The translations under genes were made by a program, and so were the position numbers. DNA of 27,852 nucleotides from an uncultured virus (IMG/VR IMGVR_UViG_3300026522_000846). Its lineage: Duplodnaviria; Heunggongvirae; Uroviricota; Caudoviricetes. The notes under the pieces were generated by a model, which was given only the letters and a program-made list of their open reading frames with translations, had not been told where the DNA came from and did not search any database. The stretch lies in IMG/VR virus record IMGVR_UViG_3300026522_000846; one strand, written 5' to 3'. Below are positions 128 to 27,730 of this stretch, piece by piece. Numbering within the stretch: position 1 is the first letter of the stretch; the number at the start of each line of letters is the position of its first letter.

Positions 128-1626
128 TCCTGACCACCCTCTTCCTTGTCATTGCTTTCATTATCACCCTGTGACGACTCTTCGTTATCGCTCTGCGATG
201 ACTCAGATGTCCGACCTTTGGTCTTTGACTCCTCCAGACTTGTTCCATTCAGTGTTGCTGTTACGTCTCCTGAAAATCCCTTCACGATAATGCTGTTCTC
301 TTTTCCGTCTCCAGTCACGGTTGCCGAGAATGTTACCGAACCGTCATCGTTTGGTGTCTGTTCAAAGGTCAGTCCGCTTATGGGGTTTTTCATCGTTACG
401 GATCCGTCTCCGTTCGGTACAGTGACCTTGATTTTGTACTTCTTTCCTTTTTTGAGATCCACATCAAAGGCTTTGTCGGAATTCTCCGCAGTTATGGTCT
501 GACTCTCTTCTTCCGTTTCCTCTGCATTCTCTTCTGTTCTTGCATATCCGAAAGCGTTCGGATCTTTGGTAGAATATGAGTTCAGTGCAGGAACGGTACT
601 GTAGCAGGCTGTCTCTCCGATAGGCGACTCTGTAGCCTGATTTGTAGCCGAGTCGTATGTTGCATTTACAGATAGCTGCCTTTTATTAAAGTTTTCAGCC
701 TTGTCTTCATATTTCGTTCCGTGTACGAGTCTGAATACACCGCCAAAGTTCGGAACATAATATCCGTCAGGAAGATAGTCAGGGAGCTTCAGTTCCTGAT
801 AGACGCTGTTTGCCTTCAGACCTTTTGTATATTCAGCATACAGTTCCATTCCTGAAAAATAATGTGTGTCTGATTTAACATCGAATGTGTGACATTCTGT
901 ACCTGAATATATATTTACAGGATATGCCCTGTCTTCGGGTGCAGTCTCGCCCGCCTTGGGATCACTCACAAGTACGTCTGACTTTACAAAACCGCCGATG
1001 GAAAGTATGTCGGGCTTTACCTTTACCGCACTCTTGCCTTTTCCGACACTATCAAAGGTGTAGGTCGTTTTTGAGTTATTAAGTGCTGTGGCGATCGCCT
1101 GTGCTGACGAGTTTGGTCTGACATTTGATTTATCACTGGAACTTGATTCACTCGAAAGATTTATCGTATATGTCTTGTTTGCCTGCTCTGTTACGCCGTA
1201 TATTCCGAACGAATAACCCTCATCCTTATATCTCTCGTAATATATCGTATTAATGGGCGTAGTATTGCTCCTGTAGATCAGCTTGTCTTTATCACCGAGA
1301 TATAGCGTGGGAACGGTTTTGTAAGTTTTTGCGTCCATCATGATAAGCCTTGTAGCATTGGTCGAGTTCTCGGCTCTCTTTGTGACATTCGCCTGCACAT
1401 TAAAGCATATCGGATATGCCTTCCCTTTGTGATAAACATAGTAGTTTCCTGCCGTGATCTTTGACAGGTCTACACCTGTATCAGGCTCATCACCCTTATG
1501 TACTTTCATTTCTATTTTCTGCGGTTTGCCCGATGTATTCTTCATCGTTTTCAAGAGTACACTTCCCGCAATAAAAACTACCAGTAAGACAATAATAGGA
1601 ACCTTTAATTTCTGTATAACTTCCAT
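124..1626 (-). CDS. Membrane-anchored or exported protein of unknown function (500 aa)
   Basis: Long ORF with GAGGTG RBS, N-terminal hydrophobic helix (PIIVLLVVFIAGSVLL), polar body and acidic Ser-rich tail. Confidence 0.8.
   Translation of the reverse strand: MEVIQKLKVPIIVLLVVFIAGSVLLKTMKNTSGKPQKIEMKVHKGDEPDTGVDLSKITAGNYYVYHKGKAYPICFNVQANVTKRAENSTNATRLIMMDAKTYKTVPTLYLGDKDKLIYRSNTTPINTIYYERYKDEGYSFGIYGVTEQANKTYTINLSSESSSSDKSNVRPNSSAQAIATALNNSKTTYTFDSVGKGKSAVKVKPDILSIGGFVKSDVLVSDPKAGETAPEDRAYPVNIYSGTECHTFDVKSDTHYFSGMELYAEYTKGLKANSVYQELKLPDYLPDGYYVPNFGGVFRLVHGTKYEDKAENFNKRQLSVNATYDSATNQATESPIGETACYSTVPALNSYSTKDPNAFGYARTEENAEETEEESQTITAENSDKAFDVDLKKGKKYKIKVTVPNGDGSVTMKNPISGLTFEQTPNDDGSVTFSATVTGDGKENSIIVKGFSGDVTATLNGTSLEESKTKGRTSESSQSDNEESSQGDNESNDKEEGGQE
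201..230 (-). repeat. Palindromic element type II, partial copy inside the 500-aa CDS
   Basis: Reverse complement AGTCAAAGACCAAAGGTCGGACATCTGAGT resembles AGTTAAAGACCGAAGGTCGATCTTCTGA at 19520-19547. Confidence 0.6.
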
Positions 1627-1685
1627 ACAACACCTCTCTATTTGTTCAAAAAAAATAGACCTGAAAGTCGAAACGATATTTCTGT

Positions 1686-1707
1686 ATCAAGCAACTTGTT
1701 GCTTGCT
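1686..1707. repeat. 22-nt palindromic module CAAGCAAC-TT-GTTGCTTG
   Basis: ATCAAGCAACTTGTTGCTTGCT is identical at 1686-1707 and 26933-26954. Confidence 0.85.
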
Positions 1708-1736
1708 ACGGTAGTATCATTTCACCCTTCAAGTCA

Positions 1737-1773: not shown

Positions 1774-1797
1774 GTTAAAGACCGTAGGTCGAACGTC
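1774..1797 (+). repeat. Palindromic element type II, partial copy (GTTAAAGACCGTAGGTCGAAC)
   Basis: The 21-mer is identical to 13489-13509. Confidence 0.85.
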
Positions 1798-2515: not shown

Positions 2516-2529
2516 AAAACCCCCTTTAA

Positions 2530-2580
2530 TGGAGTGAACCAAAGGTTCACTCCTAGGAATGAATGCAGGCATTCGTTCCA
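2530..2580. repeat. Palindromic element type I (double hairpin) in a 5' UTR
   Basis: T-GGAGTGAACC-AAA-GGTTCACTCC-TA-GGAATGAATGC-AG-GCATTCGTTCC-A. Confidence 0.9.
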
Positions 2581-2693: not shown

Positions 2694-5177
2694 CTACGCC
2701 TGTTCCGCATCTTTCGGCTTCGTACTCATGATACGGTAAAGTTCCGTGTCGGTCGGGAAGTTGTTCTCGAACGGAATGTTCTGCGTTCCGATATGAATGA
2801 GTCCGTGTCCGCTGTCCACACCATTGATATATGATATTTCTGTCTCATTAAGGCTCAACATCTGTCGCAGAGCCTCACGGTCAAGCATTGCCTGATTGAG
2901 CATTTCAATGAAGTTGGTGTTATTGATGATGGAACGTGCATCCGGGGACTGAAGAAGATCTTCAACGTTCTGGGTAATTCCCGTCAGCACCAGTCCGAAC
3001 TTTCTGGCACGCTTCCACATGGTCTTTACAGTCTCGGAAGATGTCTCATTTCGAAGGAGCATATGAAACTCATCAATAAAGGCATAAGTCAGTCTGCCTT
3101 TGAGTGCATTCTCCGTAGCCTTTGTCCATATCATGTTCAGACACACCTTAAGTCCAAGCTCTTCCAAGGTCGAACCGATATGATGTATGTCGAATACGAT
3201 AAGTCTCTTATCTATATCAACATCAGTCCTGCTTGCAAAAGAGTCATATCCCTGTCCGCAGAACATCTCGATGTTCAAAGCCAATTCCTGTGCTTCGGGA
3301 TAGTCCTGTCCGTATTCAAGAAGTCCCTTCATTAAGTCCTGAAGCGTAGGTGCTACCCTCCTGTCGATCGTTGGCTGTCTGCCGGTCACGGGGTCAGGGT
3401 TCTCATTCGAAAGAGTTCGTATATAACTCTGATACAGTCTTGTAAGCACCTTATTGATGAGAGACTTGTGAGCCGGTGTAAGGGTACTGTAGTTCCTCGA
3501 CACACCGCCCTGCATCATGGTGTCGCAGAGACTGGTCACAAAGTCTGCCTGCTGTGCAAGCGGATTTGTGGTCTCATCGATAGATGTATCCATATCGAGG
3601 TCGAACGGATTAAGATGTACGCCGTTGCCGGGTGCGATCTTTATCACAGTACCGCCAAGTTCGTTTGCGATGGCTGAATACTCACCATCGGGATCGATAA
3701 CGTAAACATAGGCGTTACTGTTTAAGATGGCATTTATCATGAGCATTTTAGCTGCAAAGGATTTACCTGAACCTGATGCTCCAAGGATAAGACCGTTATA
3801 GTTCATGCCCTTCATTCGGTCGAGGAAGATGACTGATTTATTAACGGAATTGAGACCGTAATAGAATCCATGCTCATCCAATGTAGATGTTTCCGTGAAC
3901 GGCATGAATGCGGCCATATTCTCTGTCGTGAGAAGTCTCTTCATGTAGGTATGGTTAGTATTCAGAGGAAGGCTTGCATTGAAGCCGTTTTCCTGCTGAA
4001 GCACAAACGGTGTAAAGTGGCACAGGTTCTGATTCTGTACTGACTTTATCGCAGCCTTTGTCCTGTCGAGTTCATCTACTGTATTTCCAAATGCCGTAAG
4101 GTTCATCTGGAAATAGAACACTCTCTGGTCTCTCGACTGCATATCACGTTCAAGCTGTTCTACCTGATCCTTGACTATCTCAAGGTCTCCTCCGATAAGG
4201 TCGGGGCTGTATCCTGACTTTACGGCAGCCTTCTGTTTCTCAACAAGCTCCGAGTTTATCATGACTTTTTTGTTATGTACGATCTTTGTTCCCTCGGCTT
4301 GGTCTAGCGGCTGTACGTCAATGGATATCAGAAGCTTTGCATTGATGTCCATGAGATTACCCACAAAGTCTGTAGAAAGGAAGTTCGCTATACCTGACAG
4401 ATACATGGACTGTGCCACTTCTTCTCCGACAATGAACCTGTTGGAAGAAAACTTGAATGCGGGCGGAGCAATAAGATCCTTTGTTGTCATTCCTGTTTTC
4501 TTTAACATATCAAAGTCCACAGTGGTATTTCCCTTTTCATCATGATGGAAAAGAGGATTGTCAGATGTGCCGTATATCTCGGCAAGGACTTCGAGATACT
4601 CATCAATAGTCAGTGCCCTTACTTCCTTTTTCAGGAATGTTCTCATCTCCTGTGCGACTCTCAGATCAAGATCTTTGAAATGCTTTGCCGCAGCGTCTAC
4701 GCTCTTCTCACGGACACTGTAACAGAGATACCTGTTCGTGATTATTGAACCTCTTGACTCCACAAGCTTTGTGTGGATAATGTCGTTCATTTCCTCACGA
4801 AGATGATCCATGGAGTCGCCCTGTTCCTGCATCTTCATTTTTGCAAATCGAAGATCAATATCGTCTACCGTATTGAGAAGTATGAACTGCACATGCTCAT
4901 TCGCTTCGATGGAATTTAAGAATGTCTCATACTTGTCAAAGAAATTGTTCTGCTCTTCATCAGAAAGCGTTTTGAAGTTCGCTTCGGGTAACTGATAGAG
5001 TTTACAGAACACGCCCGGTTCAGACTGTATCATTCCATTCGGATATACATCAATATATGGAATGGTACGCTGTGCCGTTGTTGCCTGTTTCTTTCTTGCC
5101 TTTTCGCTTGATGCGGACGCACCATTATTTGAACTTGTACTGCTGACACCTGTCAGCATTTTCTGCCAATCAGCCAT
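2694..5177 (-). CDS. virB4: VirB4-like conjugative transfer ATPase (TraE/TrsE family)
   Basis: 827 aa; Walker A GASGSGKS, IDPDGEY, LNPFD, Walker B FIDEFH, KRARKFG..TGITQNVEDLL; lies downstream of a PrgI-like gene. Confidence 0.93.
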   Translation of the reverse strand: MADWQKMLTGVSSTSSNNGASASSEKARKKQATTAQRTIPYIDVYPNGMIQSEPGVFCKLYQLPEANFKTLSDEEQNNFFDKYETFLNSIEANEHVQFILLNTVDDIDLRFAKMKMQEQGDSMDHLREEMNDIIHTKLVESRGSIITNRYLCYSVREKSVDAAAKHFKDLDLRVAQEMRTFLKKEVRALTIDEYLEVLAEIYGTSDNPLFHHDEKGNTTVDFDMLKKTGMTTKDLIAPPAFKFSSNRFIVGEEVAQSMYLSGIANFLSTDFVGNLMDINAKLLISIDVQPLDQAEGTKIVHNKKVMINSELVEKQKAAVKSGYSPDLIGGDLEIVKDQVEQLERDMQSRDQRVFYFQMNLTAFGNTVDELDRTKAAIKSVQNQNLCHFTPFVLQQENGFNASLPLNTNHTYMKRLLTTENMAAFMPFTETSTLDEHGFYYGLNSVNKSVIFLDRMKGMNYNGLILGASGSGKSFAAKMLMINAILNSNAYVYVIDPDGEYSAIANELGGTVIKIAPGNGVHLNPFDLDMDTSIDETTNPLAQQADFVTSLCDTMMQGGVSRNYSTLTPAHKSLINKVLTRLYQSYIRTLSNENPDPVTGRQPTIDRRVAPTLQDLMKGLLEYGQDYPEAQELALNIEMFCGQGYDSFASRTDVDIDKRLIVFDIHHIGSTLEELGLKVCLNMIWTKATENALKGRLTYAFIDEFHMLLRNETSSETVKTMWKRARKFGLVLTGITQNVEDLLQSPDARSIINNTNFIEMLNQAMLDREALRQMLSLNETEISYINGVDSGHGLIHIGTQNIPFENNFPTDTELYRIMSTKPKDAEQA

Positions 5178-7076: not shown

Positions 7077-7175
7077 ACTTTACCTCTTTTCAATACGCAT
7101 TTTTTGGGGACAGAATGAAAAGGTCTGTCTCGTTTTTTTCTCTAGGAAAGGGACTTTAGTCTCTTTCTCTTCGAT

Positions 7176-7211
7176 AAAATATATGAGTAAAACGTTAAGT
7201 GTACTTTTGAA
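7176..7211 (-). promoter_or_regulatory. Conserved upstream motif, copy 2
   Basis: AAAATATATGAGTAAAACGTTAAGTGTACTTTTGAA is 35/36 identical to 15568-15603; about 100 bp upstream of the T4SS genes. Confidence 0.75.
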
Positions 7212-7237
7212 TGGAACGAATGCTTACATTCGTTCCA
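7212..7237. repeat. Palindromic element type I, single hairpin
   Basis: T-GGAACGAATG-CTTA-CATTCGTTCC-A; same module as 2556-2579. Confidence 0.8.
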
Positions 7238-9980: not shown

Positions 9981-10000
9981 TTTATGAATAAAACGTAAGT
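9981..10000 (-). promoter_or_regulatory. Conserved upstream motif, copy 3
   Basis: TTTATGAATAAAACGTAAGT, about 80 bp upstream of the pilin start. Confidence 0.65.
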
Positions 10001-11887: not shown

Positions 11888-13411
11888 TTAAAATGCCATC
11901 ATCTGGAATGAAGAACTACCGTTATCATCTGTCGTGGACTCCTGTTCTCGCATAGGAACGGGAACCGTTCCATTCGTATCATCTTCACTCGATATGTTTG
12001 AGTTCGATATTTGTTCTTCTACAAACTTTGGTTCTCCATCACGTTCAGAGCCTACGACCGTAGGTCGAATGTCCAAATCCTGAACTTTTGTATCGCCTGA
12101 ATTTTCATTCTGTGAAAGCTCCGTTATTTCCTTACCGTCAGCTCCTATGCGGTTTATTCCCAGATCCTCATTTACAACGTCATGGAAGTCGAAGAACCCC
12201 TCGGCGTTCGGATCAAACTTTGCCGTAACGATCTGTGATATGTGATAGTCCTTAACATAAATGACCGTATCCATAGCCTGAAACTGATTGGCATACTGTT
12301 TAGCCGTCATCTTGGAATCCGACTCCATAGCGTAGTCGATCATCTTCTGATATCCGTCATGTGCGGAAATCGAATGCACGGATGTCATGCACTGGGAACC
12401 GGTATAGGTGGCATAGGCGATCTGTGCAGCTTCCGGACCTTTTACCTCACCGATAACGATGATGTCAAAGGATTCCATAAGGGCAAGCCTGCCAAGGTCA
12501 ACGATCGAATAAGAGATATTACTGTTATTCTTCTTCGGAACTATACGCCTGAATATCATTTCGGGGTGGTCGTCACAGAACAGCTCTTCCGATTCCTGTA
12601 TAACATCGCACGATCTGTTCTGGGGCGTAACGTCAAGCACGGCATTGATGAGTGTTGTTTTCCCTGAACCGTTCGGTCCGCATATAAGAAAGCTGTGTCC
12701 CGAAAGCCATCTGTTCGTTATCCATATCTTCTCCGCCAGTGTCATATATTCATCTTTTACAAGCGTATCGAACGTTTTCTTATGCTTCAGTATCTTTCTT
12801 ATGAGAAGTGTTGGTCTGTCGTTCGTATTCACAAGGTCTGACACAAGTGAAAACCTGAGAATTGAATTCTCTGACGAATCCTTATCCGTAAATACCTGTG
12901 CAGCGTTTGAAATCGCTGTATTTGTATTGTTTCGTGTCGTAATATGCTCGATAAACCGAATGTATGCTTCCTTTGAGGGGAATCTGATCGGATCACCGTT
13001 CTTATCCGTTGCAGCCATTCGTTTACCGCGTTTCTTTACCCTGATGTCGTTCTCGTTGATGAGTCGAATGTCGGAAACAGAGTCATCATTATTGATAAGG
13101 TCGTCTATGATGTCGAACCCCCACAGAGCCTTATCGATATCATCAGCAACGGCTTTTACCACATCATCTGATATTCCACGCTTTTTACCGTCCTCTACGA
13201 TCTTCTGACGGAAGTCCTTCCGTTTCAGCGTCTTTCTCTGCACCTGTATGTAGATACGGTTCGTGGGATCGTCGATATAGTCACGCCATATCTTCTCGAA
13301 CTCTTTACGTTCGGACTCTTTACGCTGTTCTTCATCTGATGGAATGGATCTTTGATCCATTCCTAGGAACGGTTCTTTTAGAACCGTTCCACTGTTCGTA
13401 ATGTTGTTCAC
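11888..13411 (-). CDS. cpaF: CpaF/TadA (VirB11-like) pilus assembly ATPase
   Basis: LINNDDSVSDI, Walker A GPNGSGKTT, QESEEL, IVIGEVKG, MTSVH; GTG start overlaps the upstream TGA. Confidence 0.9.
   Translation of the reverse strand: MNNITNSGTVLKEPFLGMDQRSIPSDEEQRKESERKEFEKIWRDYIDDPTNRIYIQVQRKTLKRKDFRQKIVEDGKKRGISDDVVKAVADDIDKALWGFDIIDDLINNDDSVSDIRLINENDIRVKKRGKRMAATDKNGDPIRFPSKEAYIRFIEHITTRNNTNTAISNAAQVFTDKDSSENSILRFSLVSDLVNTNDRPTLLIRKILKHKKTFDTLVKDEYMTLAEKIWITNRWLSGHSFLICGPNGSGKTTLINAVLDVTPQNRSCDVIQESEELFCDDHPEMIFRRIVPKKNNSNISYSIVDLGRLALMESFDIIVIGEVKGPEAAQIAYATYTGSQCMTSVHSISAHDGYQKMIDYAMESDSKMTAKQYANQFQAMDTVIYVKDYHISQIVTAKFDPNAEGFFDFHDVVNEDLGINRIGADGKEITELSQNENSGDTKVQDLDIRPTVVGSERDGEPKFVEEQISNSNISSEDDTNGTVPVPMREQESTTDDNGSSSFQMMAF
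12043..12073 (+). repeat. Palindromic element type II, partial copy in the cpaF C-terminal tail
   Basis: GTTCAGAGcctAcGACCGTAGGTCGAA versus GTTCAGAGTTAAAGACCGTAGGTCGAA. Confidence 0.75.
13340..13391. repeat. Palindromic element type I in the cpaF 5' coding region
   Basis: GGAATGGATC-TTT-GATCCATTCC-TA-GGAACGGTTCT-TTT-AGAACCGTTCC; encodes GTVLKEPFLGMDQRSIP. Confidence 0.92.
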
Positions 13412-14022
13412 CTTGCACCCCCTTCCTCTACTGAAGAATTAGAATTCACAGGACGAACTTCTGAATCTTTGCGAAGCAAAGGTTCAGAGTTAAAGACCGT
13501 AGGTCGAACTTCTTTTTTCCTTATTGTTCCGTCAGCATTTATCTGACATCGGCATGAAACAAGCTCTCCGTCTTTTCCGTTCAGTCCTTCGATCTTGAAC
13601 ACATCATGCGATGTGATGTTCTTCTTCTGTCTCACTCTCGGAACGACAAGCTGTCCGTTCTTCAATTCTCCCTTCAAAAACAGAAGTGAACCTGTATGCC
13701 CCGCAAGACGCATGACGGCATTTTCCTTTGACTTCGCAAAGCCCGCCTCTGTATATTCAAGAAGATAAAGATACAGCCGTCCGTCTGTATGACGCTGAAT
13801 ATGTCCGTGAAGTGAAAGGATGTCGAACGGTTTTTTCCTGGTAAACTCATCCTTGCCGTCGGAATCGGCAAGCACGACATCGATCTCGGCTAATCTAACA
13901 TTGGGATAATGTTCTGTTAAAAAGTAGAACGGAACCGTTATCCGCCATACATCCTTATTCACTTTCATTTTTGGTGACTCGCTTATAAACCCAAACAGGT
14001 AGCAGTCATTGTATGTCTCCAT
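13408..14022 (-). CDS. Hypothetical protein, possibly a divergent SSB-like OB fold
   Basis: GAAAGGA RBS; NDCYLFGFISESP and DILSLHGHIQR loosely recall SSB motifs, so the product call is weak. Confidence 0.55.
   Translation of the reverse strand: METYNDCYLFGFISESPKMKVNKDVWRITVPFYFLTEHYPNVRLAEIDVVLADSDGKDEFTRKKPFDILSLHGHIQRHTDGRLYLYLLEYTEAGFAKSKENAVMRLAGHTGSLLFLKGELKNGQLVVPRVRQKKNITSHDVFKIEGLNGKDGELVSCRCQINADGTIRKKEVRPTVFNSEPLLRKDSEVRPVNSNSSVEEGGAR
13450..13513 (+). repeat. Palindromic element type II, full copy in the 204-aa CDS
   Basis: AGGACGAACT-TCTGAATCTTTGC-GAA-GCAAAGGTTCAGA-GTTAAA-GACC-GTA-GGTC-GAACTTCT; end repeats 51 nt apart. Confidence 0.92.
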
Positions 14023-15603: not shown

Positions 15604-15668
15604 GATTTACATTCTGTTTGGATAAGGTGGATATGGGTAGAGTTTGAACAGAGTTTGAAATGGAATTT

Positions 15669-15722
15669 GAAGTTCTGTCTATGGTCTTTAACTCTTTACC
15701 CTTGCTTTACAAAGGTTCAGAA
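15669..15722 (-). repeat. Palindromic element type II, degenerate inverted copy
   Basis: GAAGTTCtgtCTAtGGTCTTTAACTCTttACCcTTGCTTtaCAAAGgTTCAGAA aligns to the reverse complement of 13459-13512. Confidence 0.75.
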
Positions 15723-15970
15723 ACAAAGTTTAGAACAAAGTTTGAAACGGAACTTAAGACAGAGTTTAAAGGTAGATTGGATAAAGAAATAGGGATAGGT
15801 TAAGAGATAGATTATAAGGATGGGTTAAGGGGCATAGAGTGTAAGGGTAGGTTTAAGGATAGGTTTAGGAAAGGATGTGTAGGACAGGGTATAGGAATTG
15901 TTTGGAAGGTTGATTGGAAGATGGTTTAAGGATGGGTTAAAGGTAGGTTGGAAGTATGGGTATGAAAAGC
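15721..15970. repeat. Degenerate 11-12 bp tandem array, strongly C-depleted on the + strand
   Basis: Units such as AAACAAAGTTTA, GAACAAAGTTTG, AGACAGAGTTTA, AAGGGTAGGTTT, AAGGATAGGTTT, AAGGATGGGTTA. Confidence 0.65.
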
Positions 15971-19200: not shown

Positions 19201-20205
19201 ATCAAGGGCATGAGTAAAGACGTTAAGATACAGGGCGGTGACTATCCGACTCTGAAAGCGTTCTGGGAGAAAAACCCCCTGACGCTTCCCGTACTTGAAA
19301 CGCTCACGAATGCAGGATTCTTCCGGCATTTTGGAAGTCGCCAGAGCGTGATCGAATACTTTGAACAGGAAGTTCCGAACGCCCTGAAAAGGAAGAAGAT
19401 ACTCGATTCCGCAGAAAATGGCGTGCCAACGGATGCACAGGCAAAGAAACTTGAAAAGATCCCCGAAATGTCAGAATTTGTAGGTCGACCTTCTGAGCCT
19501 TTGCGTAGCAAAGACTCAGAGTTAAAGACCGAAGGTCGATCTTCTGAAGAACCGCTTTTGGAACTATACGGAAACGAATATCAGTCCATGGGTCTCGTAT
19601 TCCCTGACGATTCGATATGGAGAAGGCTTGCACTTACAGACGGATTTCCAAAAGAGGGAAAAGCAAGAGTCGGAGCTGTTGTCTGCTTTGTTAATAAAGA
19701 CAGACCTGTAAAGTCAAAGGGGCGGTTTTACTATGAGACCTATCTTATGGATAAGACCGGTGAGATAAGGAAGTTCTTCTCCGATGAGGTCATGGATAAA
19801 CCGTATGGATTATTCGACCTCACTCCGTCACCGTGGTGCATGGCATGGGGGAATACAAGGAAAGGAGAACTGCCGACCGAAAGCGTACTCATTTTTAATG
19901 GCAATGTCGGGAGTACAGGCTATATCACAAGGGGTGAAATGACAGACCTGCTTTGTAAGATAAAGAGCAAAGAACTACAAGTGTTTCATGGAACGGTTCT
20001 TTTAGAACCGTTCCGAGGAATGGATCCGATCCATTCCATTTCGCGATACCTTGTAATGTATGGTAACGAATCCATAAGAGAGTCAACAGGCATATATCTC
20101 TCATCGGTTGAATATCATGCACTCGAAAACACATTAAGCGAACAGCAAAAGACCACAGGTATCGAACCTGAAAGGATAATGAGGATCAGCAAGTGTTGTT
20201 TTTGA
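16222..20205 (+). CDS. dnaE: DNA polymerase III alpha subunit (DnaE-type, family C)
   Basis: PHP motifs (HVH, TEHD, PGVE, ELQNH, TNDIH), GPGRGSA, FERFLNPERKSMPDIDCDF, GQHAGG, KMDFLGL, GVFQFES, YAFNKSHAAAY. Confidence 0.96.
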   Translation: MYGAWHVHFESPNDTGNVLDEMLDEFESVGAKKVTVTEHDVFTSFVELKDKCRDRSVKVIPGVEGTMTDVIDGFPLHNAHMVLVAKDKVGYRSLSKIITDANKHFSLHSEDKRPIITWENLEKNVAKGHIFMSSACIQGIFGQIVKSPDITKQELTKKAERKLGLTAEEVEHILAVESELSEKKKAKTITADETKVYKDNHKLYLHYKRYKTEIEKVNEIPVLSKERILELCSKAYDKLCSIFGKDFVYFELQNHGLPSEKQIYSTIARLPQVHMDNVLLTNDIHVGKVHPTETDFLRRNVAQYSRYHTVWEITDADKELYIKDDEDLMNAVRELPSLPDGIVECGMENVKKVLSSCETDYLYEKSEGHYPKFSDHAEDDLKACVEIGKKERFPNGFPSKEYDERLKHELDVICGMGYADYHLIVQDYVNWTKKYGYCVDFFRDHEIDFTSDLTNQTICLDNSSMTYQGVVPTMAELDETIEKFHIPEQGINMGPGRGSAVSSLVCYLLGISDIDPVRYHLLFERFLNPERKSMPDIDCDFRPDLRGKAIEYTKMKYGENSTCKIITKTYGALAGNIRLAARYLGTKEYDKLPLIKQMEIKESTFLKPWYNAADRLSKSIDKDGNITDTGSFNKMEQEIFDLAESLSGLFLSFGQHAGGNIISRDDITDSMPLFWNSKKQNFSTQCVHDEAEQAGFLKMDFLGLINLNLLTDMMELTGDNSLMDREKREKILNDPKIYQEIFSTGNTQGVFQFESNGMKELMREFQPDCFEDLILLVALYRPGPLQYKDEIVATKWYRKGQGKKPTKAIDINNDVLNRILEPTYGCIIYQEQVMQIFEFLAGYSLGDADLVRRAMAKKNLDKLTIEREAFLHGDKSRNIKGVQATFGLSDNDLAPYNALFDQMLDFASYAFNKSHAAAYSLVSFFTAYFKCYHPGEFYAVSLNHTGTLDEVAPFVSEMRTLNSTRITLKRPDVRYATPDFKFDGKDILYGYTHIKGMSKDVKIQGGDYPTLKAFWEKNPLTLPVLETLTNAGFFRHFGSRQSVIEYFEQEVPNALKRKKILDSAENGVPTDAQAKKLEKIPEMSEFVGRPSEPLRSKDSELKTEGRSSEEPLLELYGNEYQSMGLVFPDDSIWRRLALTDGFPKEGKARVGAVVCFVNKDRPVKSKGRFYYETYLMDKTGEIRKFFSDEVMDKPYGLFDLTPSPWCMAWGNTRKGELPTESVLIFNGNVGSTGYITRGEMTDLLCKIKSKELQVFHGTVLLEPFRGMDPIHSISRYLVMYGNESIRESTGIYLSSVEYHALENTLSEQQKTTGIEPERIMRISKCCF
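19480..19547 (+). repeat. Palindromic element type II, in frame in dnaE
   Basis: GTAGGTCGACCTTCTGA and GAAGGTCGATCTTCTGA are 51 nt apart around TCTGAGCCTTTGC-GTA-GCAAAGACTCAGA; encodes VGRPSEPLRSKDSELKTEGRSSE. Confidence 0.92.
19989..20038. repeat. Palindromic element type I, in frame in dnaE
   Basis: GGAACGGTTCT-TTT-AGAACCGTTCC-GA-GGAATGGATC-C-GATCCATTCC; encodes GTVLLEPFRGMDPIHS. Confidence 0.92.
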
Positions 20206-20212
20206 AAACAGG

Positions 20213-20238: not shown

Positions 20239-20248
20239 AGAACGAGTG

Positions 20249-20271
20249 TTGGAACGATTCGGTCGTTCCAA
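20249..20271. repeat. Palindromic element type I, single hairpin
   Basis: TTGGAACGA-TTCGG-TCGTTCCAA. Confidence 0.7.
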
Positions 20272-20288
20272 AGGAAGGGAGATAAATT

Positions 20289-21289: not shown

Positions 21290-21302
21290 TGTAAGGAGAA
21301 TT

Positions 21303-22961: not shown

Positions 22962-22975
22962 TATGCGTATATAAT
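22947..22975 (+). promoter_or_regulatory. Sigma-A-type promoter for the inserted cassette
   Basis: TTGCAA-17 nt-TATAAT overlapping the recJ stop. Confidence 0.7.
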
Positions 22976-23072
22976 AAAAAGAACAAGAGAAACAATTTCT
23001 GTCAAAAAAGAGGTGCGTCTGCAAAAGCAAGTACGTCTGAGACCCAAAACAGGTACAAAAACAACGGACTAA

Positions 23073-23171
23073 AATTGGCAGAAATGTGCAGAAAGAGCGG
23101 TGAGTCTGATGATTGAAGATATATTTGATATGAGTGAAGAACGAGAAGACGATATTGAGGAAGAACGATGA
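23073..23171 (+). pseudogene. Probable 3' remnant of a gene ending ...EEREDDIEEER*
   Basis: Short open frame with an in-frame stop just upstream; shares its last codons with the kinase gene. Confidence 0.45.
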
Positions 23172-23188
23172 TGAGTCCGTTAAAACGA
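23149..23188 (+). repeat. 40-bp direct repeat, left copy
   Basis: ACGATATTGAGGAAGAACGATGATGAGTCCGTTAAAACGA, identical to 24740-24779. Confidence 0.95.
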
Positions 23189-23210
23189 GACCATCGGGAA
23201 AGGAAACAGT

Positions 23211-23432
23211 ATGCTTAGTTATTCTGAAAAGCTAGACGATGAGACAAAAGAAGACTTTGAAACTTACCAAAAAGCCTTATCTTTGTATCAGGAAAACTCC
23301 AATCCGGATACCCACTATGAACTGCTATGCGCTTATCAGAACATTTTCAATGACCTGAAAATGCTTCGATCCATTCATCGGATTTCGGATACGGAATTTG
23401 AAGTGCTTAGAAAGGAAATTAATAATGCATGA
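23211..23432 (+). CDS. Small acidic helical protein, candidate antitoxin or partner of the kinase
   Basis: 73 aa, GAAAGGAA RBS, overlaps the kinase start by 8 nt. Confidence 0.65.
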   Translation: MLSYSEKLDDETKEDFETYQKALSLYQENSNPDTHYELLCAYQNIFNDLKMLRSIHRISDTEFEVLRKEINNA

Positions 23433-24762
23433 ATTTCTAAACAATATTAATGCTCATATCATAAAGGAAGAACTCAACGTATATAGTGGCTCGGAAAGGA
23501 AGAAAACACTTTTGATGGACGACGGTCAACGATACATGTTAAAATTCCCAGATCCTACACGAGAAAAAGGATTGCGTCTTTCTTACATAAACAATACCAT
23601 CTCAGAATATCTTGGATGTCATGTTTATCAGACCATCGGACTTTCGGTTCAGAAGACTTCGCTTGGAATTTATATCGCAGACATGGCAGGGACAGGAACT
23701 CCGAAAATTGCATGCTTGTGTCGAGACTTCAAAAATGACGGAATTACTTTGCACGAAGCAGAGAAACTGCTTCTGTCCTCTGTTGACTCCGATGCACAAA
23801 ACAGTCTAACATTGTCAACCGTTAAAAGGCTCTTAAAAGAAACTACAAATGATTGGCAGACAGCGTGGAAGAAGTATTGTGATATGACAATTGTGGATGC
23901 CTTGATCGGAAACACGGATCGTCACAATGGAAATTGGGGATTGGCAGAATACCCAGATCATACAATTTCGATGGCGCCCGTCTTTGACTGTGGGTCTTCT
24001 TTTTCTCCTTTGCTCTCAGATGAAGAGTTGTCAGAAAGAATTGCGAATCGGGAAGCACTCACCGTACAATCCGCACTACGAGACGAAAATACACACAGGA
24101 AATTATCCTTTGCCGAAATCTTAAACGGTCATGAGCCAGAAATTCTTCGAGCAGAGCGAAGGATTATTCCAAAAATTTCTCTTCAGGCAATCAACGATGT
24201 GATTGACAGTATCCCTTATATTTCCGAAAGGAGAAAGGGGTTTTACAAGTCGCTAGTTTCTGTTCGATATGAGAAACTGTTGATCCCGACGCTGGAAAAA
24301 AATCTGTCTATTCAAAAGACAGACGAATACAAACAATGGAATTCTAAAGTAATTGCTAAGATTTTTGAACTCTATATTTCGGCACTTTGTCAATTGCCCG
24401 AAAATTGTGACACACAAATTACTATTAATCATCACAATTTCGTTGTAAGACGAAATGGCGATTATCTCTTTCTAATGAACAACCAAGAAGAATGTGACGG
24501 TCTCATTCACCTAAAAAAAACAAATCTGAATATCGGTAAATTTGTTCAATGTATGAGAAACTTAGGCTGTCCGATTAATATCCACGACATCATTTTAGAG
24601 ACAAGAAACGAAGCTTCGAATGTTGAAAAATCGGATTCTCGGAATGTAAACGCAACAGGTACTGTTGAAAACGGGGCAGATACCATTCCTATTGATTCGG
24701 CATGTAATCTGCTTGACGAGGAGGAAACCGTCGATATGAACGATATTGAGGAAGAACGATGA
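23425..24762 (+). CDS. HipA/CtkA-family Ser/Thr kinase with a C-terminal extension
   Basis: YSGSERKK, YMLKFP, SEYLGCHVY, DALIGNTDRHNGNWG, MAPVFDCGSS; about 150 extra C-terminal residues. Confidence 0.88.
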   Translation: MHEFLNNINAHIIKEELNVYSGSERKKTLLMDDGQRYMLKFPDPTREKGLRLSYINNTISEYLGCHVYQTIGLSVQKTSLGIYIADMAGTGTPKIACLCRDFKNDGITLHEAEKLLLSSVDSDAQNSLTLSTVKRLLKETTNDWQTAWKKYCDMTIVDALIGNTDRHNGNWGLAEYPDHTISMAPVFDCGSSFSPLLSDEELSERIANREALTVQSALRDENTHRKLSFAEILNGHEPEILRAERRIIPKISLQAINDVIDSIPYISERRKGFYKSLVSVRYEKLLIPTLEKNLSIQKTDEYKQWNSKVIAKIFELYISALCQLPENCDTQITINHHNFVVRRNGDYLFLMNNQEECDGLIHLKKTNLNIGKFVQCMRNLGCPINIHDIILETRNEASNVEKSDSRNVNATGTVENGADTIPIDSACNLLDEEETVDMNDIEEER

Positions 24763-24779
24763 TGAGTCCGTTAAAACGA
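24740..24779 (+). repeat. 40-bp direct repeat, right copy
   Basis: Spans the kinase stop and the HTH gene start; identical to 23149-23188. Confidence 0.95.
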
Positions 24780-24989
24780 ATCCTATCCGAAAGAGGAATG
24801 TCTCTAAAGAAATTTGCGGAACTCTCAGGTCTGTCTTCTCGGTCTTTAGAGCCGTATATGGCAGGAAGAAAAGACTTCCGAAATGCCAGAGCTTGGCAAG
24901 CTGTTCGTGTTGCAGATGCCCTTGGCATTGACATTCATGAACTTTTTTGTGACAAAGAGGAAAAAAGATCCCATGAACTAAAATTTTAA
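24759..24989 (+). CDS. XRE-family helix-turn-helix regulator
   Basis: LKRILSERGMSLKKFAELSGLSSRSLEPY..GR...RVADALGIDIHELF. Confidence 0.88.
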   Translation: MMSPLKRILSERGMSLKKFAELSGLSSRSLEPYMAGRKDFRNARAWQAVRVADALGIDIHELFCDKEEKRSHELKF

Positions 24990-25167
24990 TGACAATGGCA
25001 AGGTGACCGTTTTCCGATATAAGGACCTTTTGGGTGACATAAACCCTAACAAGCCATTCCTAGCGATTGGAGAACTGAACGCGGAACGATATAAGGGCAA
25101 CAGGGGAATCAACCTCATCGCTGCTGAACTGGAAGAAGATAAGGTGCGGGAAGGGGAAAAAGGGTAA
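24985..25167 (+). pseudogene. Second, diverged copy of the recJ 3' end
   Basis: Reads FNDNGKVTVFRYKDLLGDINPNKPFLAIGELNAERYKGNRGINLIAAELEEDKVREGEKG*, collinear with recJ 22761-22940; in-frame stop upstream and no start codon. Confidence 0.9.
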
Positions 25168-25219
25168 AACTCATTCCGAGAAGTGACAATTTTTGTACGA
25201 ACCAAAAAAAATTATTCAT

Positions 25220-25257
25220 AAAAGAGAAGAGAAAGAAACAGCTCTCTTCTCTTTTTT
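25220..25257 (+). terminator. Terminator-like hairpin
   Basis: AAAAGAGAAGAGA...TCTCTTCTCTTTTTT after the recJ remnant. Confidence 0.6.
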
Positions 25258-25278
25258 ATGTATTGGAAAGGATTTTTA

Positions 25279-25944
25279 ATGCTGAATTTGGCGATTTTGA
25301 TTCCGTGCAAAAATGAAGAAAAAACGATTCGACAAGTCATTCGTGACTGTCAAAAAGAGTTACCGCAGGCAGAGATATTTGTCGGTGACAATAATTGTAC
25401 CGACAATACCAAAGCTGTTGCCGAGGACTGTGGTGTGACGGTCATTCCATGCCCTATTTCGGGGAAAGGTGCTGCCTTAAAGGTAATGATTCGTAAAGTA
25501 AAGGCAGATAAGTATCTTTTTATCGATGGTGACGGAACATATTCGGCACGGGATGGGAAAATGCTTTTGGATAAAATGATACATACACCTCATTGTGCCA
25601 TGGCGATCGGTGACCGAAGGAAACAGTATTTTGTGGAAAATCAATCACTCTTTCATGCACTTGGGAATCGCCTAGTGCCATATCTTGTGGCGAAAAAGTG
25701 CCATGCCCGTTCCGTGGATGTGATGTCGGGACTTCGCATTGTAACGCGGGCATTTCTGTTAAAATATCCCATTCAGTCTGATGATTTCACTGTGGAAACG
25801 GAACTGACCATGAACCTTTTCTGTTCCAGACAGCCGTATGTTACAGAGGATATTTCCTATCATGACAGACAGAAAGGATCTCGTTCCAAGATTTGTTCCA
25901 TCAAAGATGGAAGAAAAATCATTATGTGGATATTGAAACATTAA
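25279..25944 (+). CDS. GT2 glycosyltransferase (polyprenol-phosphate sugar synthase, DPM1/GtrB-like)
   Basis: ILIPCKNEE, DNNCTDNT, GKGAA, FIDGDGTY, DVMSGLR, FTVETELT, GSRSKI. Confidence 0.9.
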   Translation: MLNLAILIPCKNEEKTIRQVIRDCQKELPQAEIFVGDNNCTDNTKAVAEDCGVTVIPCPISGKGAALKVMIRKVKADKYLFIDGDGTYSARDGKMLLDKMIHTPHCAMAIGDRRKQYFVENQSLFHALGNRLVPYLVAKKCHARSVDVMSGLRIVTRAFLLKYPIQSDDFTVETELTMNLFCSRQPYVTEDISYHDRQKGSRSKICSIKDGRKIIMWILKH

Positions 25945-25948
25945 CGAA

Positions 25949-27730
25949 ATGGAGAAACTGATGTTACAGTCTTTAACTTTTCATAAACAGAAAAATTTAT
26001 TTAATGGAGTGAATCAAAGATTCACTCCTATTATCGCTGTTGTTTTTCTGGCGATCGCTCTTCTGATCCCTCAATGTATCAATATTGGCGGAGTCAGTGT
26101 TGACTATTATTATATGCTAAAAGACGGAGGGTATCTTTTAGACCATCCATGGTCGTTTCCCAAATCAAATGTCTTTTCTTATATTCCCGGACAGAAAATT
26201 CTGTTTCAGCAATGGGGGTATATGGTGCTTGCAGCCTTCCTGACTCGTACTTTCGGAAATGCCATTGGAACGATACTTTTGGTTGATCTGTCCGTAGCTC
26301 TTTTTGTCATTTCTTTTACATGGTTCTTTCGCCTGCGGAAAATTCCCATGTCCTTGAGTTTTCTGTTCGCCGTACTTTTGGAAGTTATTGAACCCTATCA
26401 CGGTGTCCGACCGGAACTATTGACTATTGCACTTCTTATGTTACAAATCTGCGGACTGGAGCAGTTTTGTAACGTAGGGGAAAAAGTAGAAACACTTCCA
26501 TTTTTTCGTGCGAAAAAGTGGAGATGGCTCTTGTTTTTACCATTTATGACAGTCCTGGAAATGAACCTGCATGGCAGTATGTGGATAATGCACTTTGTTG
26601 TCGTCCTGCCTTATCTTGTTCAATGGCTATTCCATCGACGGTTTCACCGACAGCAATATCCAAGATGGTACGGAATTTTCCTGTTTCTTGGCATGGTTTC
26701 CATGATCCCCTGCCTGTTTTTGAATCCGTATGGAATAGACGGCATTCTCTATCTGCCACGTTCAATGAAATATTTGAATCAGTACGGCGGTTGTATTTCA
26801 GAACTTCGCTCTGTCACGATGCCAAAACAAATAGGATTGATATTCTTTAGTCCGTGGGTTCGTGTGATGTCTGGGGTTTTGTTGTTGACGGTTTTTACCG
26901 TTCTCTCCATTGAATGGAACGAATGCGAAGCGATCAAGCAACTTGTTGCTTGCTTCGGAAGAATCGTTCCTAGGAGTGAACTAAAGGTTCACTCCATTGA
27001 GCGAAAAAAGCTGCATATTGGTGACTTCTGCATGATTCTCGGACTGACCGTATTGGCGTGGACAAAAGTACGGCAGACAATGTGGATGGATATTGCCTTT
27101 GCTTTCCTTATTGCGTGGTCGTCTGAACTTTTGCGAAGCAAAGGTTCAGAGTTAATGGAACGACACAAAGTGTCGTTCCTAGGAATGGATCGTAGATCCA
27201 TTCCATTAAAGACCGTAGGACGAACATTTAAATTCGAAAAAAGTAACAATAAACTGTCTTTTCTTGTAATGGCTTTGTCTGCTTTGGTATTGGTAACGAA
27301 TACTTATACGACCAATCTGAATGCTACATTCCATCCGAAAGATAGTATTATTACCCCGATAAAGGCAGTAAGATGGCTGAACGCTCACGGAAAGAGCAAA
27401 GCATCGATCCTATGCTGTCATGATTTCGGTTCGTATTTGCAGTACAAAGGCTTTCGTGTAGCCATGGACAGTCGTCCTGAATGCTATTCCAAAGCCATTG
27501 GTGGGCGTTCCGTAGCAGAAAACATTGTGCCTTTGTACGATATGAAATCTTATCATATCAGGAATGCAGACGCATACTATCACAAAATAACGACATTATA
27601 CCGTGCAGACTATGCCATAGCTTATGATCGAAGTGACATATTTTCCTATCTCATAAAGAACGATCCAAATTATCATGCGGTAGTCAAAGGGAAAGGATAT
27701 ATCCTGTACGAATGTGAAGCCTCACACTAA
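25949..27730 (+). CDS. Polytopic membrane protein, putative GT-C glycosyltransferase
   Basis: About 10 or more TM segments; D in the first outer loop, QQW, RPEL, NLHG, NPYG, DSRPE; adjacent to the GT2 gene. Confidence 0.65.
   Translation: MEKLMLQSLTFHKQKNLFNGVNQRFTPIIAVVFLAIALLIPQCINIGGVSVDYYYMLKDGGYLLDHPWSFPKSNVFSYIPGQKILFQQWGYMVLAAFLTRTFGNAIGTILLVDLSVALFVISFTWFFRLRKIPMSLSFLFAVLLEVIEPYHGVRPELLTIALLMLQICGLEQFCNVGEKVETLPFFRAKKWRWLLFLPFMTVLEMNLHGSMWIMHFVVVLPYLVQWLFHRRFHRQQYPRWYGIFLFLGMVSMIPCLFLNPYGIDGILYLPRSMKYLNQYGGCISELRSVTMPKQIGLIFFSPWVRVMSGVLLLTVFTVLSIEWNECEAIKQLVACFGRIVPRSELKVHSIERKKLHIGDFCMILGLTVLAWTKVRQTMWMDIAFAFLIAWSSELLRSKGSELMERHKVSFLGMDRRSIPLKTVGRTFKFEKSNNKLSFLVMALSALVLVTNTYTTNLNATFHPKDSIITPIKAVRWLNAHGKSKASILCCHDFGSYLQYKGFRVAMDSRPECYSKAIGGRSVAENIVPLYDMKSYHIRNADAYYHKITTLYRADYAIAYDRSDIFSYLIKNDPNYHAVVKGKGYILYECEASH
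26001..26030. repeat. Palindromic element type I, single hairpin in frame
   Basis: TTAAT-GGAGTGAATC-AAA-GATTCACTCC-TA; differs from 2526-2555 by one compensatory pair (C-G to T-A). Confidence 0.9.
26914..26996. repeat. Palindromic element type I with a nested CAAGCAAC hairpin, in frame
   Basis: GGAACGA-[ATGCGAAGCG-ATCAAGCAACTTGTTGCTTGCT-TCGGAAGAA]-TCGTTCC-TA-GGAGTGAACT-AAA-GGTTCACTCC. Confidence 0.88.
27117..27225 (+). repeat. Type II element interrupted by a type I element, in frame
   Basis: TCTGAACTTTTGC-GAA-GCAAAGGTTCAGA-GTTAA-[T-GGAACGACAC-AAA-GTGTCGTTCC-TA-GGAATGGATC-GTA-GATCCATTCC-ATTAA]-AGACCGTAGGACGAAC. Confidence 0.92.

Follow-up and report, generated by a model that had tools for sequence, protein, structure and literature searches.

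Hairpin mini-repeats spread between genes and in frame within genes of a large plasmid-like element of cattle-gut bacteria

Introduction

How do the same short palindromes come to lie in several unrelated protein-coding genes without breaking them, and what kind of DNA are they? The question is raised by a stretch of 27,852 nt (the window, i.e., the whole of the DNA that was analysed), for which a sequence-only reading had proposed a non-autonomous mobile family of DNA hairpins, inserted in frame in genes in the manner of the Rickettsia palindromic elements (RPEs). That proposal is supported by the analysis presented here. The host element is a large plasmid-like element of cattle-gut bacteria, and its hairpin mini-repeats, spread between genes and in frame within genes, are DNA-level insertions rather than protein motifs. 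It is probable (about 0.78) that they are selfish DNA elements, very small and non-autonomous, which form at least two families and a minor third and belong to one plasmid lineage. The carriers are conjugative-plasmid-like elements of ~145–150 kb from rumen/gut Lachnospiraceae. No hairpin family of such a kind was found described in the literature for plasmids or Lachnospiraceae, and the modules have no match in Rfam; that they might belong to a family already catalogued, which had been named beforehand as a refutation, was therefore not borne out.

Anatomy and Distribution of the Repeats

In the window, type I (GGA..TCC hairpins, mostly doubles) occurs at nine sites and type II (a 51-nt module) at about seven (Table 1). 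Type I consists of hairpin only, usually two perfect 10–11-bp stems joined by TCC-TA-GGA, with a core of ~50 nt flanked on one side by a short A/T spacer. The type II unit (51 nt, 17 codons) combines an imperfect 13-bp hairpin with a bulged minihairpin, laid out as GAGTTAAA-stem-GNA-stem-GAAC. A third module (26933-26954) forms the inner hairpin of the double at 26910..26996. In hairpins of the form GGAACGGTTC, the T-rich loop lies on the same strand in 8/8. Repeats of both types were found at the positions claimed for them and in the genes previously named, and the common peptides that had been quoted are present in the translations. The earlier list of copies holds for most sites, but it omits the hairpin at 11955-11971 and the third module, and its copy at ~201-241 is weak.

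Table 1. Repeat copies and one neighbouring gene in the window.
Feature	Position	Strand	Location and remarks
Weak degenerate minihairpin-like stretch	201..241	-	C-terminal tail, 500-aa gene; E 0.005-0.39
Third module, second copy, ATCAAGCAA-CTTG-TTGCTTG..	1684..1709		Intergenic
Type II, minihairpin only, GTTAAA-GACC-GTA-GGTC-GAAC	1774..1797	+	Intergenic
Type I double, 23 nt + TA + 24 nt, second stem with 1 mismatch	2527..2580 (hairpins 2531-2579)		At or just before the doubtful start codon of the 261-aa ORF
Type I single	7212..7237 (hairpin 7213-7236)		Intergenic, immediately 3' of a 43-nt repeat
Type I, 17-nt hairpin GGAACGG..CCGTTCC	11955..11971		C-terminal tail, T2SSE/CpaF-like ATPase gene
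Type II, minihairpin only	12050..12073	+	C-terminal tail, ATPase gene; 10-aa gap here in c6 homologue
Type I double	13337..13391 (hairpins 13341-13390)		ATPase gene, codons 8-25
Type II, full 51-nt unit (13458-13513) and partial unit	13441..13513	+	C-terminal part of 204-aa gene, which reads the opposite strand
Type II, degenerate	15668..15725 (15669-15723)	-	Intergenic; nhmmer E 5e-11
Type II, full copy (19489-19545)	19473..19545	+	DnaE linker, peptide SEPLRSKDSELKTEGRS
Type I double	19986..20038 (hairpins 19990-20037)		DnaE gene
Type I short single	20250..20270 (hairpin 20251-20269)		Intergenic, 3' of dnaE
Type I single	26002..26030 (hairpin 26006-26028)		593-aa membrane-protein gene, codons 18-27
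Type I double, inner hairpin within first hairpin	26910..26996 (26914-26995)		593-aa gene
Type II + type I composite	27117..27232	+	593-aa gene
3' end of 444-aa TnpB-like gene, IS605-like element	27809..27852	-	Context only

A chance origin of the repeats is excluded. Perfect hairpins (stem ≥9, loop 3–5) number 12 in the window against 0–2 in 10 dinucleotide shuffles, and 46 in a related 51.6-kb contig against 0–3 in its shuffles, while 40 further type I hairpins were found on a 97%-identical contig. The pattern GGAAYG..CRTTCC was matched 22 times, with no match in the control. The 51.6-kb contig has 24 CCTAGG junctions, flanked by hairpins in 23/24 cases, and a 143.8-kb relative (c6) has six. 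When folded as ssDNA, the repeats gave z-scores of -10.6, -4.3, -3.9, -9.1, and -7.2. Type I copies lie inside ORFs at 7/9 window sites and at 8/24 further sites; overall, roughly half of the copies or more fall between genes, although intergenic DNA is scarce. The genic copies sit in termini, linkers or loops.

The hairpins themselves appear to be constrained. Among 24 type II copies chosen by a sequence HMM, 89.3% of the stem is paired and 12 of 20 pairs have changed on both sides, a level of pairing and covariation reached by none of 500 shuffles. For type I, two-sided changes were seen at 6/10 pairs, in a set picked as palindromic and with four loci entering twice as reverse complements. 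Because the stems change by paired substitutions, hairpin formation probably matters for the spread or persistence of the elements. In a scan of the 2.6-Mb assembly of one sequenced host, all 10 type II pattern matches fell on contig 6 (the 144-kb plasmid contig; control 0), and no type II was found on the chromosome.

Homologues and Reading Frames

Homologues of 20/20 queried window ORFs with a match at E ≤ 1e-5 (40–86% identity) are present on the Lachnospiraceae contig c6; for the 261-aa ORF, no c6 homologue was found. Both the type I and the type II insert are missing from two homologues of DnaE (72 and 40% identical), and the alignment with c6 DnaE leaves a clean gap of 19 aa at the type I site and one of 13 aa at the type II site. 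Likewise, the 593-aa gene shows gaps of ~22 aa (26910..26996) and 30 aa (27117..27232) against c6, and the N-terminal stretch of the ATPase that holds the 13337..13391 double does not align to the c6 homologue. The in-frame palindromes of the DnaE, ATPase and 593-aa genes are absent from the orthologues compared (c6, P0002). The presence of the peptides in repeat-free homologues had been proposed as a way to refute the family, and the homologues of the related element carry none at those sites.

The peptides follow the DNA and its frame. In the window the type I insert of DnaE is translated as ..HGTVLLEPFRGMDPIHS.., and in a 97%-identical variant, via +2/-2 indels, as ..WNGSFRTVPRNGSTIHS.., and type II is read in three ways according to frame and orientation (SEPLRS..ELKT.., EVRSTNFNSEPLLRK.., and FDLRSLTL..). 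Genic copies have a length divisible by three and contain no stop codon in the frame that is read, so that a ribosome can read through and the protein would gain 17–19 arbitrary residues; to judge from these open frames, the inserts are probably translated. Among the doubles borne by ORFs, 7/9 have the 50-nt core, which results in a 57-nt insertion, the remaining two measuring 87 nt and, as observed, 54 nt; outside ORFs, the 50-nt core is found in just 3/8.

Evidence for Mobility

Two observations demonstrate mobility directly, a pair of filled and empty alleles and the nesting of one element in another. The empty allele is found on a 99.5%-identical metagenome contig, where 57 nt are absent; 3–4 nt, (C)ATC, are duplicated. 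In the nested case, a type I double is located inside a type II unit, the intact sequence of which is known: in the composite of the 593-aa gene, type II (27120-27155 and 27206-27229) is split by the double at 27153-27205 (hairpins 27157-27204), with the break point GAGTTAA/../TTAAAGACC. Of two more indel polymorphisms, one involves a double of 56 nt, with a TA repeat, and the other a single of 24 nt. The filled/empty difference fits insertion as well as precise excision, and recombination or deletion could have produced two of the three polymorphisms, which are located within or next to arrays of hairpins.

Copying has taken place at the level of DNA, into new sites that are often ATT/ATC, and short direct repeats flank the copies as a result. 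In 9/17 doubles the left flank of a copy matches its right flank, against 4.06 expected by permutation (P = 0.00025), and an exact 3-nt flank repeat is absent in 8/17. The three polymorphic sites have flank repeats of 3–4, 2, and 0–1 nt, and those of other copies reach 7 nt.

Candidate Agents and Alternative Explanations

As selfish elements, the modules would have spread on the plasmid's own DNA, plausibly while it is single-stranded during conjugative transfer or replication. The agent would be an enzyme that the plasmid encodes and that acts in trans, or else template switching promoted by the hairpins. The earlier statement that the window holds no transposase is nearly true; its last 44 nt are the 3' end of the TnpB-like gene, which a 99.7–99.9%-identical contig extends into an IS200-like tnpA. 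In near-identical contigs the TnpA (Pfam Y1_Tnp, E 2.8e-42) is encoded ~1.3 kb beyond the right end of the window. The search suggested by the sequence-only reading, for an IS200-type transposase with matching ends, has been answered in part, with a tnpA just outside the window but with ends unlike the modules: the IS605-like and IS1341-like copies in relatives bear no GGA..TCC or type II hairpins at theirs. The flanks of the one Y1 gene of a relative, paired with tnpB, contain no type I hairpin; the lineage-specific ORFs gave no nuclease or transposase domain, and no transposase beyond the IS605-like and IS1341-like ones was found among 66 ORFs.

A tentative possibility is that no dedicated enzyme is involved. 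Replication would stall at the hairpins and the nascent strand would switch template and back at 2–4 nt of microhomology, so that hairpin cores would be copied with variable flanks and perfect palindromes regenerated. Variable duplication length and spacer content agree with such a process, and so do the perfect stem pairing despite numerous stem variants, the modular shuffling of hairpins among doubles, and the arrays that differ between 97–99% identical contigs. A 40-nt, AT-bounded indel distinguishes c6 from the window at the o291/recJ junction, with a partial hairpin arm left in the window. Template switching accounts less well for a clean 57-nt insertion in an ORF remote from other copies, and the strong ATT/ATC flank preference and the constant TCC-TA-GGA junction resemble the work of an enzyme.

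Rather doubtful is the alternative that the modules are minimal IS200/IS605-type elements (PATE- or REP-like), moved as ssDNA hairpins by the Y1 HUH TnpA of the plasmid. The elements are all hairpin, the substrate that Y1 transposases bind, and the genes for TnpA and the 444-aa TnpB-like protein lie near the right end of the window. The layout of short flank, spacer, hairpin, TA, hairpin, and short flank resembles a left-end and a right-end hairpin flanked by cleavage sites, the empty allele is compatible with seamless excision, and the motif GAGTTAAAGACCG is found just 5' of tnpA and of a tnpB. Against this, the flanks of the same copy match more than their shared consensus predicts, whereas IS200/IS605 transposition is not known to duplicate its target. 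The IS ends described above, which bear no GGA..TCC or type II hairpins, and the variation of element ends among the three polymorphic sites also argue against it. The relative c6 bears on both sides: this TnpB has no homologue in c6, which is poor in type I, and this TnpA is just 45% identical to the TnpA of c6, but c6 is almost devoid of type I despite having tnpA and several tnpB genes.

It is improbable that the repeats are functional rather than selfish and are kept by plasmid-level selection, serving for example as palindromes bound by proteins or, once the plasmid has entered by conjugation, as hairpins for ssDNA initiation or as promoters. Stem covariation, the limitation of the modules to the plasmid contig, the retention of type II in both diverged lineages, and the strand constancy of the T-rich loops would all be expected of such sites, and C-GNA-G triloops form very stable DNA minihairpins. 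However, the two lineages share no type II sites at the compared positions, copy number differs ~10-fold among relatives, copies decay, near-identical contigs differ in copies, and many copies are genic in either orientation. The stem mismatches are equally divided between G·T (11) and A·C (10), so neither strand is favoured. Finally, a protein-level repeat (a linker or short domain) has next to no chance of explaining the common peptides, since it accounts for their similarity in unrelated proteins but is refuted already by the frame data (the same DNA read in different frames and orientations), and also conflicts with the intergenic half of the copies and the missing peptides in homologues.

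Comparison with Known Systems

Taken as non-autonomous selfish elements, the hairpins invite comparison with four known systems, of which the RPEs and the mitochondrial double-hairpin elements come nearest. Like MITEs and PATEs, they are small and multi-copy, and many copies have short flanking direct repeats. Typical MITEs are far larger; here the inverted repeat is merely the 6–7-nt base of a hairpin, the duplication length seems to vary, and no parent IS was found for the modules, the IS605-like and IS1341-like ends being unlike them. Derivation as PATEs of IS200/IS605, which would be expected to insert 3' of a fixed short target and to duplicate nothing, is not supported, the subterminal hairpins being unlike those of the co-resident IS and the flanks being duplicated copy by copy, despite the ATT/ATC preference.

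With REP, BIME and REPIN sequences they have in common short, often paired palindromes in high copy, covarying stems, and a Y1 transposase gene nearby. REPs are extragenic and surround their RAYT gene; here about half of the copies are genic, and the sole Y1 gene is of IS605 type, accompanied by tnpB and not flanked by modules. REPs are described as having the tetranucleotide GTAG or CGTC at one end of their palindrome (PMC3733652). Type I ends in GGA/TCC with no REP tag, and GTAG is found solely as a sequence that spans the loop of the minihairpin in type II. The analogy with REP/BIME mosaics drawn by the sequence-only reading is weak, since the repeats show none of the features that define REPs.

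Double-hairpin elements (DHE) were reportedly described from Allomyces mitochondria by Paquin et al. in 2000. The two consecutive hairpins that make up a whole mobile element tolerated by genes recall these DHE, as a likeness of architecture alone. According to the accounts in PMC2800124, which treats the repetitive hairpin-forming elements (RHE) of sponge mitochondria, and PMC4478555, the DHE, the RHE and the yeast mitochondrial GC clusters are, like the elements described here, tiny, with one or two hairpins and no known enzyme, mostly intergenic but also found within genes (in mitochondria, rRNA and protein genes), patchy among close relatives, and constrained in their stems. The yeast mitochondrial GC42 is described with a 2-nt target, AG, on each side (PMC4478555), and the Allomyces elements are reported without flanking duplications (PMC2800124), unlike the elements of this plasmid, whose flanking repeats are significant. 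The mitochondrial elements are organellar and these are of a bacterial plasmid, with no sequence relation between them.

The RPEs, as summarised in PMC10969869 from Ogata et al. (2000, 2002), measure ~100–150 bp and have one conserved peptide per family. Going by that summary, both they and the present elements are dispersed palindromic selfish DNA, located between genes and in frame within unrelated genes, with an added peptide that the protein tolerates, and a transposase is known for neither. Compared by description, the present elements are shorter (23–57 nt), and their peptide varies with frame and orientation, in contrast with the conserved RPE peptide. RPEs belong to the chromosome of an obligate intracellular alphaproteobacterium, whereas these elements belong to a plasmid-like element of Bacillota and are absent from the chromosome of the one host. 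Genes such as that of a plasmid DNA polymerase can, in the manner of the Rickettsia elements, take up hairpin repeats with their reading frame intact.

Structure and conservation of the hairpin modules

The palindromic modules dispersed in the window form a real and mobile family, a conclusion that is well supported, and they are read here as selfish elements with a probability of about 0.78. The positions proposed by the sequence-only reading were borne out by a repeat search, by reading the sequence directly and by scanning for hairpins; its copy list is correctly placed, the copy at 201 being weak. The type I hairpin starts with GGA, ends with TCC and has a stem of 9-11 bp and a loop of 3-5 nt, and it is commonly paired with a second hairpin through the joint TCC-TA-GGA. 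For type II, the best description is that of a 51-nt unit in which a 13-bp hairpin with an internal mismatch (TCTGA..TTGC-GNA-GCAA..TCAGA) is followed by GAGTTAAA, a 4-bp stem with a GNA loop (the minihairpin) and GAAC. A third small module is present in two copies. Perfect hairpins (stem of at least 9, loop of 3-5) exceed those of shuffled sequence in the window (12 vs 0-2), in the related 51.6-kb contig (46 vs 0-3) and in c6, the contig 6 of a Lachnospiraceae isolate (8 vs 1-2), and the single-stranded DNA folding z-scores of the modules range from -3.9 to -10.6.

The structure of the modules has been shown to be conserved. For 24 type II copies, selected by sequence profile and not by pairing, pairing reaches 89.3% in a three-helix model and falls to 31-47% when the partners are slid, and two-sided changes occur in 12 of 20 pairs, a number reached by none of 500 shuffles. 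The outer GTT/AAC helix of the minihairpin also covaries, from G-C to A-T in five copies. Type I stems comprise about a dozen variants connected by paired substitutions, with two-sided changes in 6 of 10 pairs in a set that was chosen for pairing and in which four loci are counted twice, as reverse complements; as an independent check, the junction word CCTAGG coincides with a hairpin at 23 of its 24 occurrences. Wobble asymmetry, a possible sign of an RNA or one-strand structure, is absent: G·T and A·C mismatches are balanced (11 vs 10), so that neither strand, and hence no RNA, is favored.

All eight hairpins with the GGAACGGTTC stem (13366, 19990 and six related-contig sites) present the T-rich loop form on the same replicon strand, irrespective of gene orientation and of the side of the putative origin on which they lie; in other stem types the loop strand is mixed. 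An exact scan of a genome collection for the GGAACGGTTC hairpin gave nine matches, all of them ordinary terminator-like hairpins of unrelated MAGs and not members of the family, and Rfam at E ≤ 1 gave just two sub-threshold chance matches. A lone hairpin with a 13-bp stem (26440-26473) lies within the 593-aa membrane-protein gene, at a 12-residue gap of the c6 homologue; it was rejected as a family member because no second copy exists in the three sequences.

The replicon and the distribution of the modules

The window encodes a VirB4/TraG-type ATPase, a PrgI-like protein and a T2SSE (CpaF-like) ATPase, together with a DnaE polymerase, RecJ, a HipA-like kinase, a GT2 glycosyltransferase and many ORFs without family. 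Its closest record, IMGVR_UViG_3300026549_001500 (51,580 bp, filed as viral with a CheckV completeness of 32%), is the related contig, collinear with window positions 13572-27852 at 96.8-98.4% identity, and adds ParA, an actin-like segregation protein, RecD-like and SNF2 helicases, a C5 methyltransferase, a 1527-aa NlpC/P60 protein, three TnpB genes and one IS200-like TnpA. A comparison of 46 ORFs with PHROGs gave no match to any phage structural family, and the element therefore reads as a conjugative-plasmid-like replicon. For the whole plasmid, a contig of 151,852 bp exists. The main comparator, c6, is the 143,829-bp contig 6 of Lachnospiraceae bacterium YH-ros2226; in tblastn, 19 of 20 window ORFs matched it at 40-86% identity, the genes being ordered differently, and no match was obtained with the 261-aa ORF. 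Window DNA, whole or in part, is present in 20 public runs, mostly from bovine gut, five of which are RNA libraries. Searching plasmid and phage collections with dnaE (blastn) returned short conserved-polymerase matches only, and no tRNA genes were found.

Type I has been seen in both the window and the related contig, and at about 11 loci of metagenome contigs that come from a few sample series. Type II has about 19 copies in c6, where it forms tandem dimers with a period of exactly 51 nt, while the window lineage has about 8, none of them at the sites used in c6. A scan of the kind proposed for the host chromosome, made on the one 2.6-Mb host assembly that includes c6, placed all ten type II pattern matches on contig 6.

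Other repeats of the replicon are listed in the table. Between 22767 and 25139 the window exceeds the 97% identical contig by about 2.1 kb, a stretch that includes the HipA-like kinase gene (23398-24762). A hipA homologue follows recJ in c6, so the cassette was probably lost from the relative by recombination between its bounding repeats. The intergenic region 15600-15960, between the divergent 402-aa gene and dnaE, contains short iteron-like repeats (GGATAGGTTTAA-like about six times, AGAGTTTGAAC two to three times); since it coincides with the cumulative GC skew minimum and a switch in gene orientation, it may be a replication origin. The two intergenic repeat pairs may be shared promoter or operator regions, and a type I hairpin comes immediately after the first copy of the 43-nt pair.

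Repeats of the window other than the hairpin modules
Feature	First copy	Second copy	Length	Identity	Form
Direct repeats bounding the hipA DNA	22767-22915	24991-25139	149 nt	80%	
Perfect repeats	at 23149	at 24740	40 nt		
Intergenic repeat pair ahead of operons	7169-7211	15561-15603	43 nt	91%	..AAAATATATGAGTAAAACGTTAAGTG..
Intergenic repeat pair ahead of operons	1737-1767	9981-10011	31 nt	81%	..AAAATATATGAGTAAAACGTTAAGTG..

Modules inside protein-coding genes

About half of all copies are intergenic, even though ORFs take up 84-90% of the DNA. Type I lies in ORFs at seven of nine window sites and at 8 of 24 further sites, of which 15 fall between genes and one straddles the end of an ORF. Several in-ORF copies are near the termini (at 2, 3, 8, 86, 88, 95 and 95% of protein length), and the remaining ones occupy internal segments where the homologue has a gap. 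The expectation that the peptides would behave as clean indels held for DnaE, where c6 has a clean 19-residue gap at the type I site; the type II site corresponds to a 13-residue c6 gap within a variable linker. Both inserts are absent from another DnaE, a more remote one with 40% identity in this region, and present in all members of the DnaE cluster (three proteins of 1326-1327 aa), which add no polymorphism. The 593-aa membrane protein agrees too, with c6 gaps of about 22 and 30 residues at two composite sites; for the T2SSE ATPase, the copies sit in termini that do not align with c6. Two 97% identical DnaE variants carry the same type I DNA in different reading frames, because +2 and -2 indels flank the element, and the 17 inserted residues are therefore unrelated between them. 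Type II is likewise translated in at least three frame/orientation combinations. Together these comparisons show that the inserts are DNA and not protein motifs.

The modules are also shown, at the level of predicted reading frames, to be tolerated in frame. A 50-nt core, which gives a 57-nt insertion, is found in seven of nine doubles inside ORFs vs three of eight outside, the other two in-ORF doubles giving insertions of 87 nt and an observed 54 nt; the mean number of open frames per double is 2.8 of six.

Gain and loss of hairpin units

Whole hairpin units are gained or lost at the DNA level with short flanking repeats, as a filled and empty allele pair and a nested insertion show, and the mobility that had been claimed from the window is thus upheld. 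The empty allele is a metagenome contig, 99.5% identical over 3959 nt, that lacks one double of the related contig (position 36089, window orientation) and has the sequence ..TTCATCAAGTGC..; the filled allele is 57 bases longer, by a TAAT spacer, the two hairpins and a repeat of (C)ATC. At 27117-27232 a type II unit is split by a type I double at GAGTTAA|..|TTAAAGACC, the uninterrupted type II reading GAGTTAAAGACC at this point. Further polymorphisms among metagenome contigs are a 56-nt double next to an existing double, with TA repeated, and a single hairpin of 24 nt, and one intergenic array differs wholesale among 97-99% identical contigs. In 9 of 17 doubles the three bases before the 4-nt spacer are the same as the three that follow the element (4.06 expected on permutation of right flanks, P = 0.00025), and in three copies the flank repeats are as long as 7 nt.

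The only type I double of c6 lies at the junction of the 291-aa gene and recJ (123531-123576, GGCGTG.. and GGAAAGGG..), where the window keeps a remnant only, AATGGCGTG alone and then the downstream flank (about 21275-21295). The difference is a 40-nt indel with AT at both bounds, and occupation of the site probably predates the divergence of the lineages.

Candidate agents of movement

The statement that no transposase is in the window needs amendment, as an IS605-like tnpA-tnpB element begins at its right edge (27809-27852 and beyond); the ends of this element are unlike the modules. It encodes an IS200-type TnpA of 163 aa and a TnpB-like protein of 444 aa, which was missed by Pfam and called a transposase by PHROGs. 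The plasmids carry several tnpB-only copies, the related contig has three more TnpB genes, and one 1.4-kb tnpB-only IS (IS1341-like) occurs both in the relative and in c6, with 95% identity over 1421 nt. The IS ends were rejected as the source of the modules, since the IS1341-like and IS605-like copies have unrelated ends and flanks. A search for nucleases (Pfam at E ≤ 1 with 10 lineage-specific or unknown ORFs; PHROGs with 46 ORFs) found none, its sole matches being a RecU-like resolvase and TnpB. The RecU-like Holliday-junction resolvase (related contig 2867-3355, PHROG E 4e-22) shares its replicon with many perfect palindromes, which could extrude as cruciforms.

Much of the probability falls to another factor as the agent. 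Hairpin-promoted template switching is a serious alternative, if a rather improbable one, because the length of the repeats and the spacers are variable and fit poorly with a fixed-stagger transposase. Movement by TnpA is unlikely, given that the ends of the IS605-like and tnpB-only elements do not resemble the modules and that canonical IS200/IS605 transposition leaves no duplication.

A more specific scheme is put forward as speculation that would more probably fail than hold. The modules would be hairpin-only mobile elements restricted to a conjugative plasmid and spreading only in its single-stranded stage, during plasmid transfer or lagging-strand synthesis, by the action of a plasmid HUH enzyme (TnpA or a relaxase) or by snap-back/template-switch synthesis in which each arm is rebuilt from the other. 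Such rebuilding of arms would account for perfect pairing in a dozen different stems, and the scheme would also account for the spared host chromosome and for the in-frame colonization of core plasmid genes such as dnaE.

Significance and relation to known systems

Selfish DNA that settles in protein-coding genes and leaves them working is textbook knowledge for Rickettsia and some mitochondria, but it has seldom been documented in other bacteria. Its setting here is a conjugative megaplasmid lineage of gut anaerobes, an unusually tractable one, with natural filled and empty alleles, a cultured host with a repeat-poor relative, and hairpins that reach a density of about one per kb. The questions opened are how hairpins alone move without a recognizable transposase, why they are confined to one replicon, and how much arbitrary peptide is tolerated by essential enzymes, a replicative polymerase among them. 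In practical terms, the modules inflate and blur protein families; they make close variants look frameshifted and can misdirect gene callers as well as plasmid/phage classifiers.

The family had not been recognized as described in the sequence-only reading, and full-text searches outside subscription journals turned up no account of such a family in plasmids; a preprint on Lachnospiraceae megaplasmids, as far as consulted, does not mention hairpins or palindromes. Mitochondrial double-hairpin elements were reportedly the subject of Paquin et al. in 2000. The modules lack the defining features of REP/BIME, an analogy that consequently fails, and also those of classical MITEs. The nearest architecture is that of the mitochondrial double-hairpin and hairpin-forming elements (PMC2800124, PMC4478555), and the match in function is with the Rickettsia palindromic elements (PMC10969869), so that this second analogy stands.
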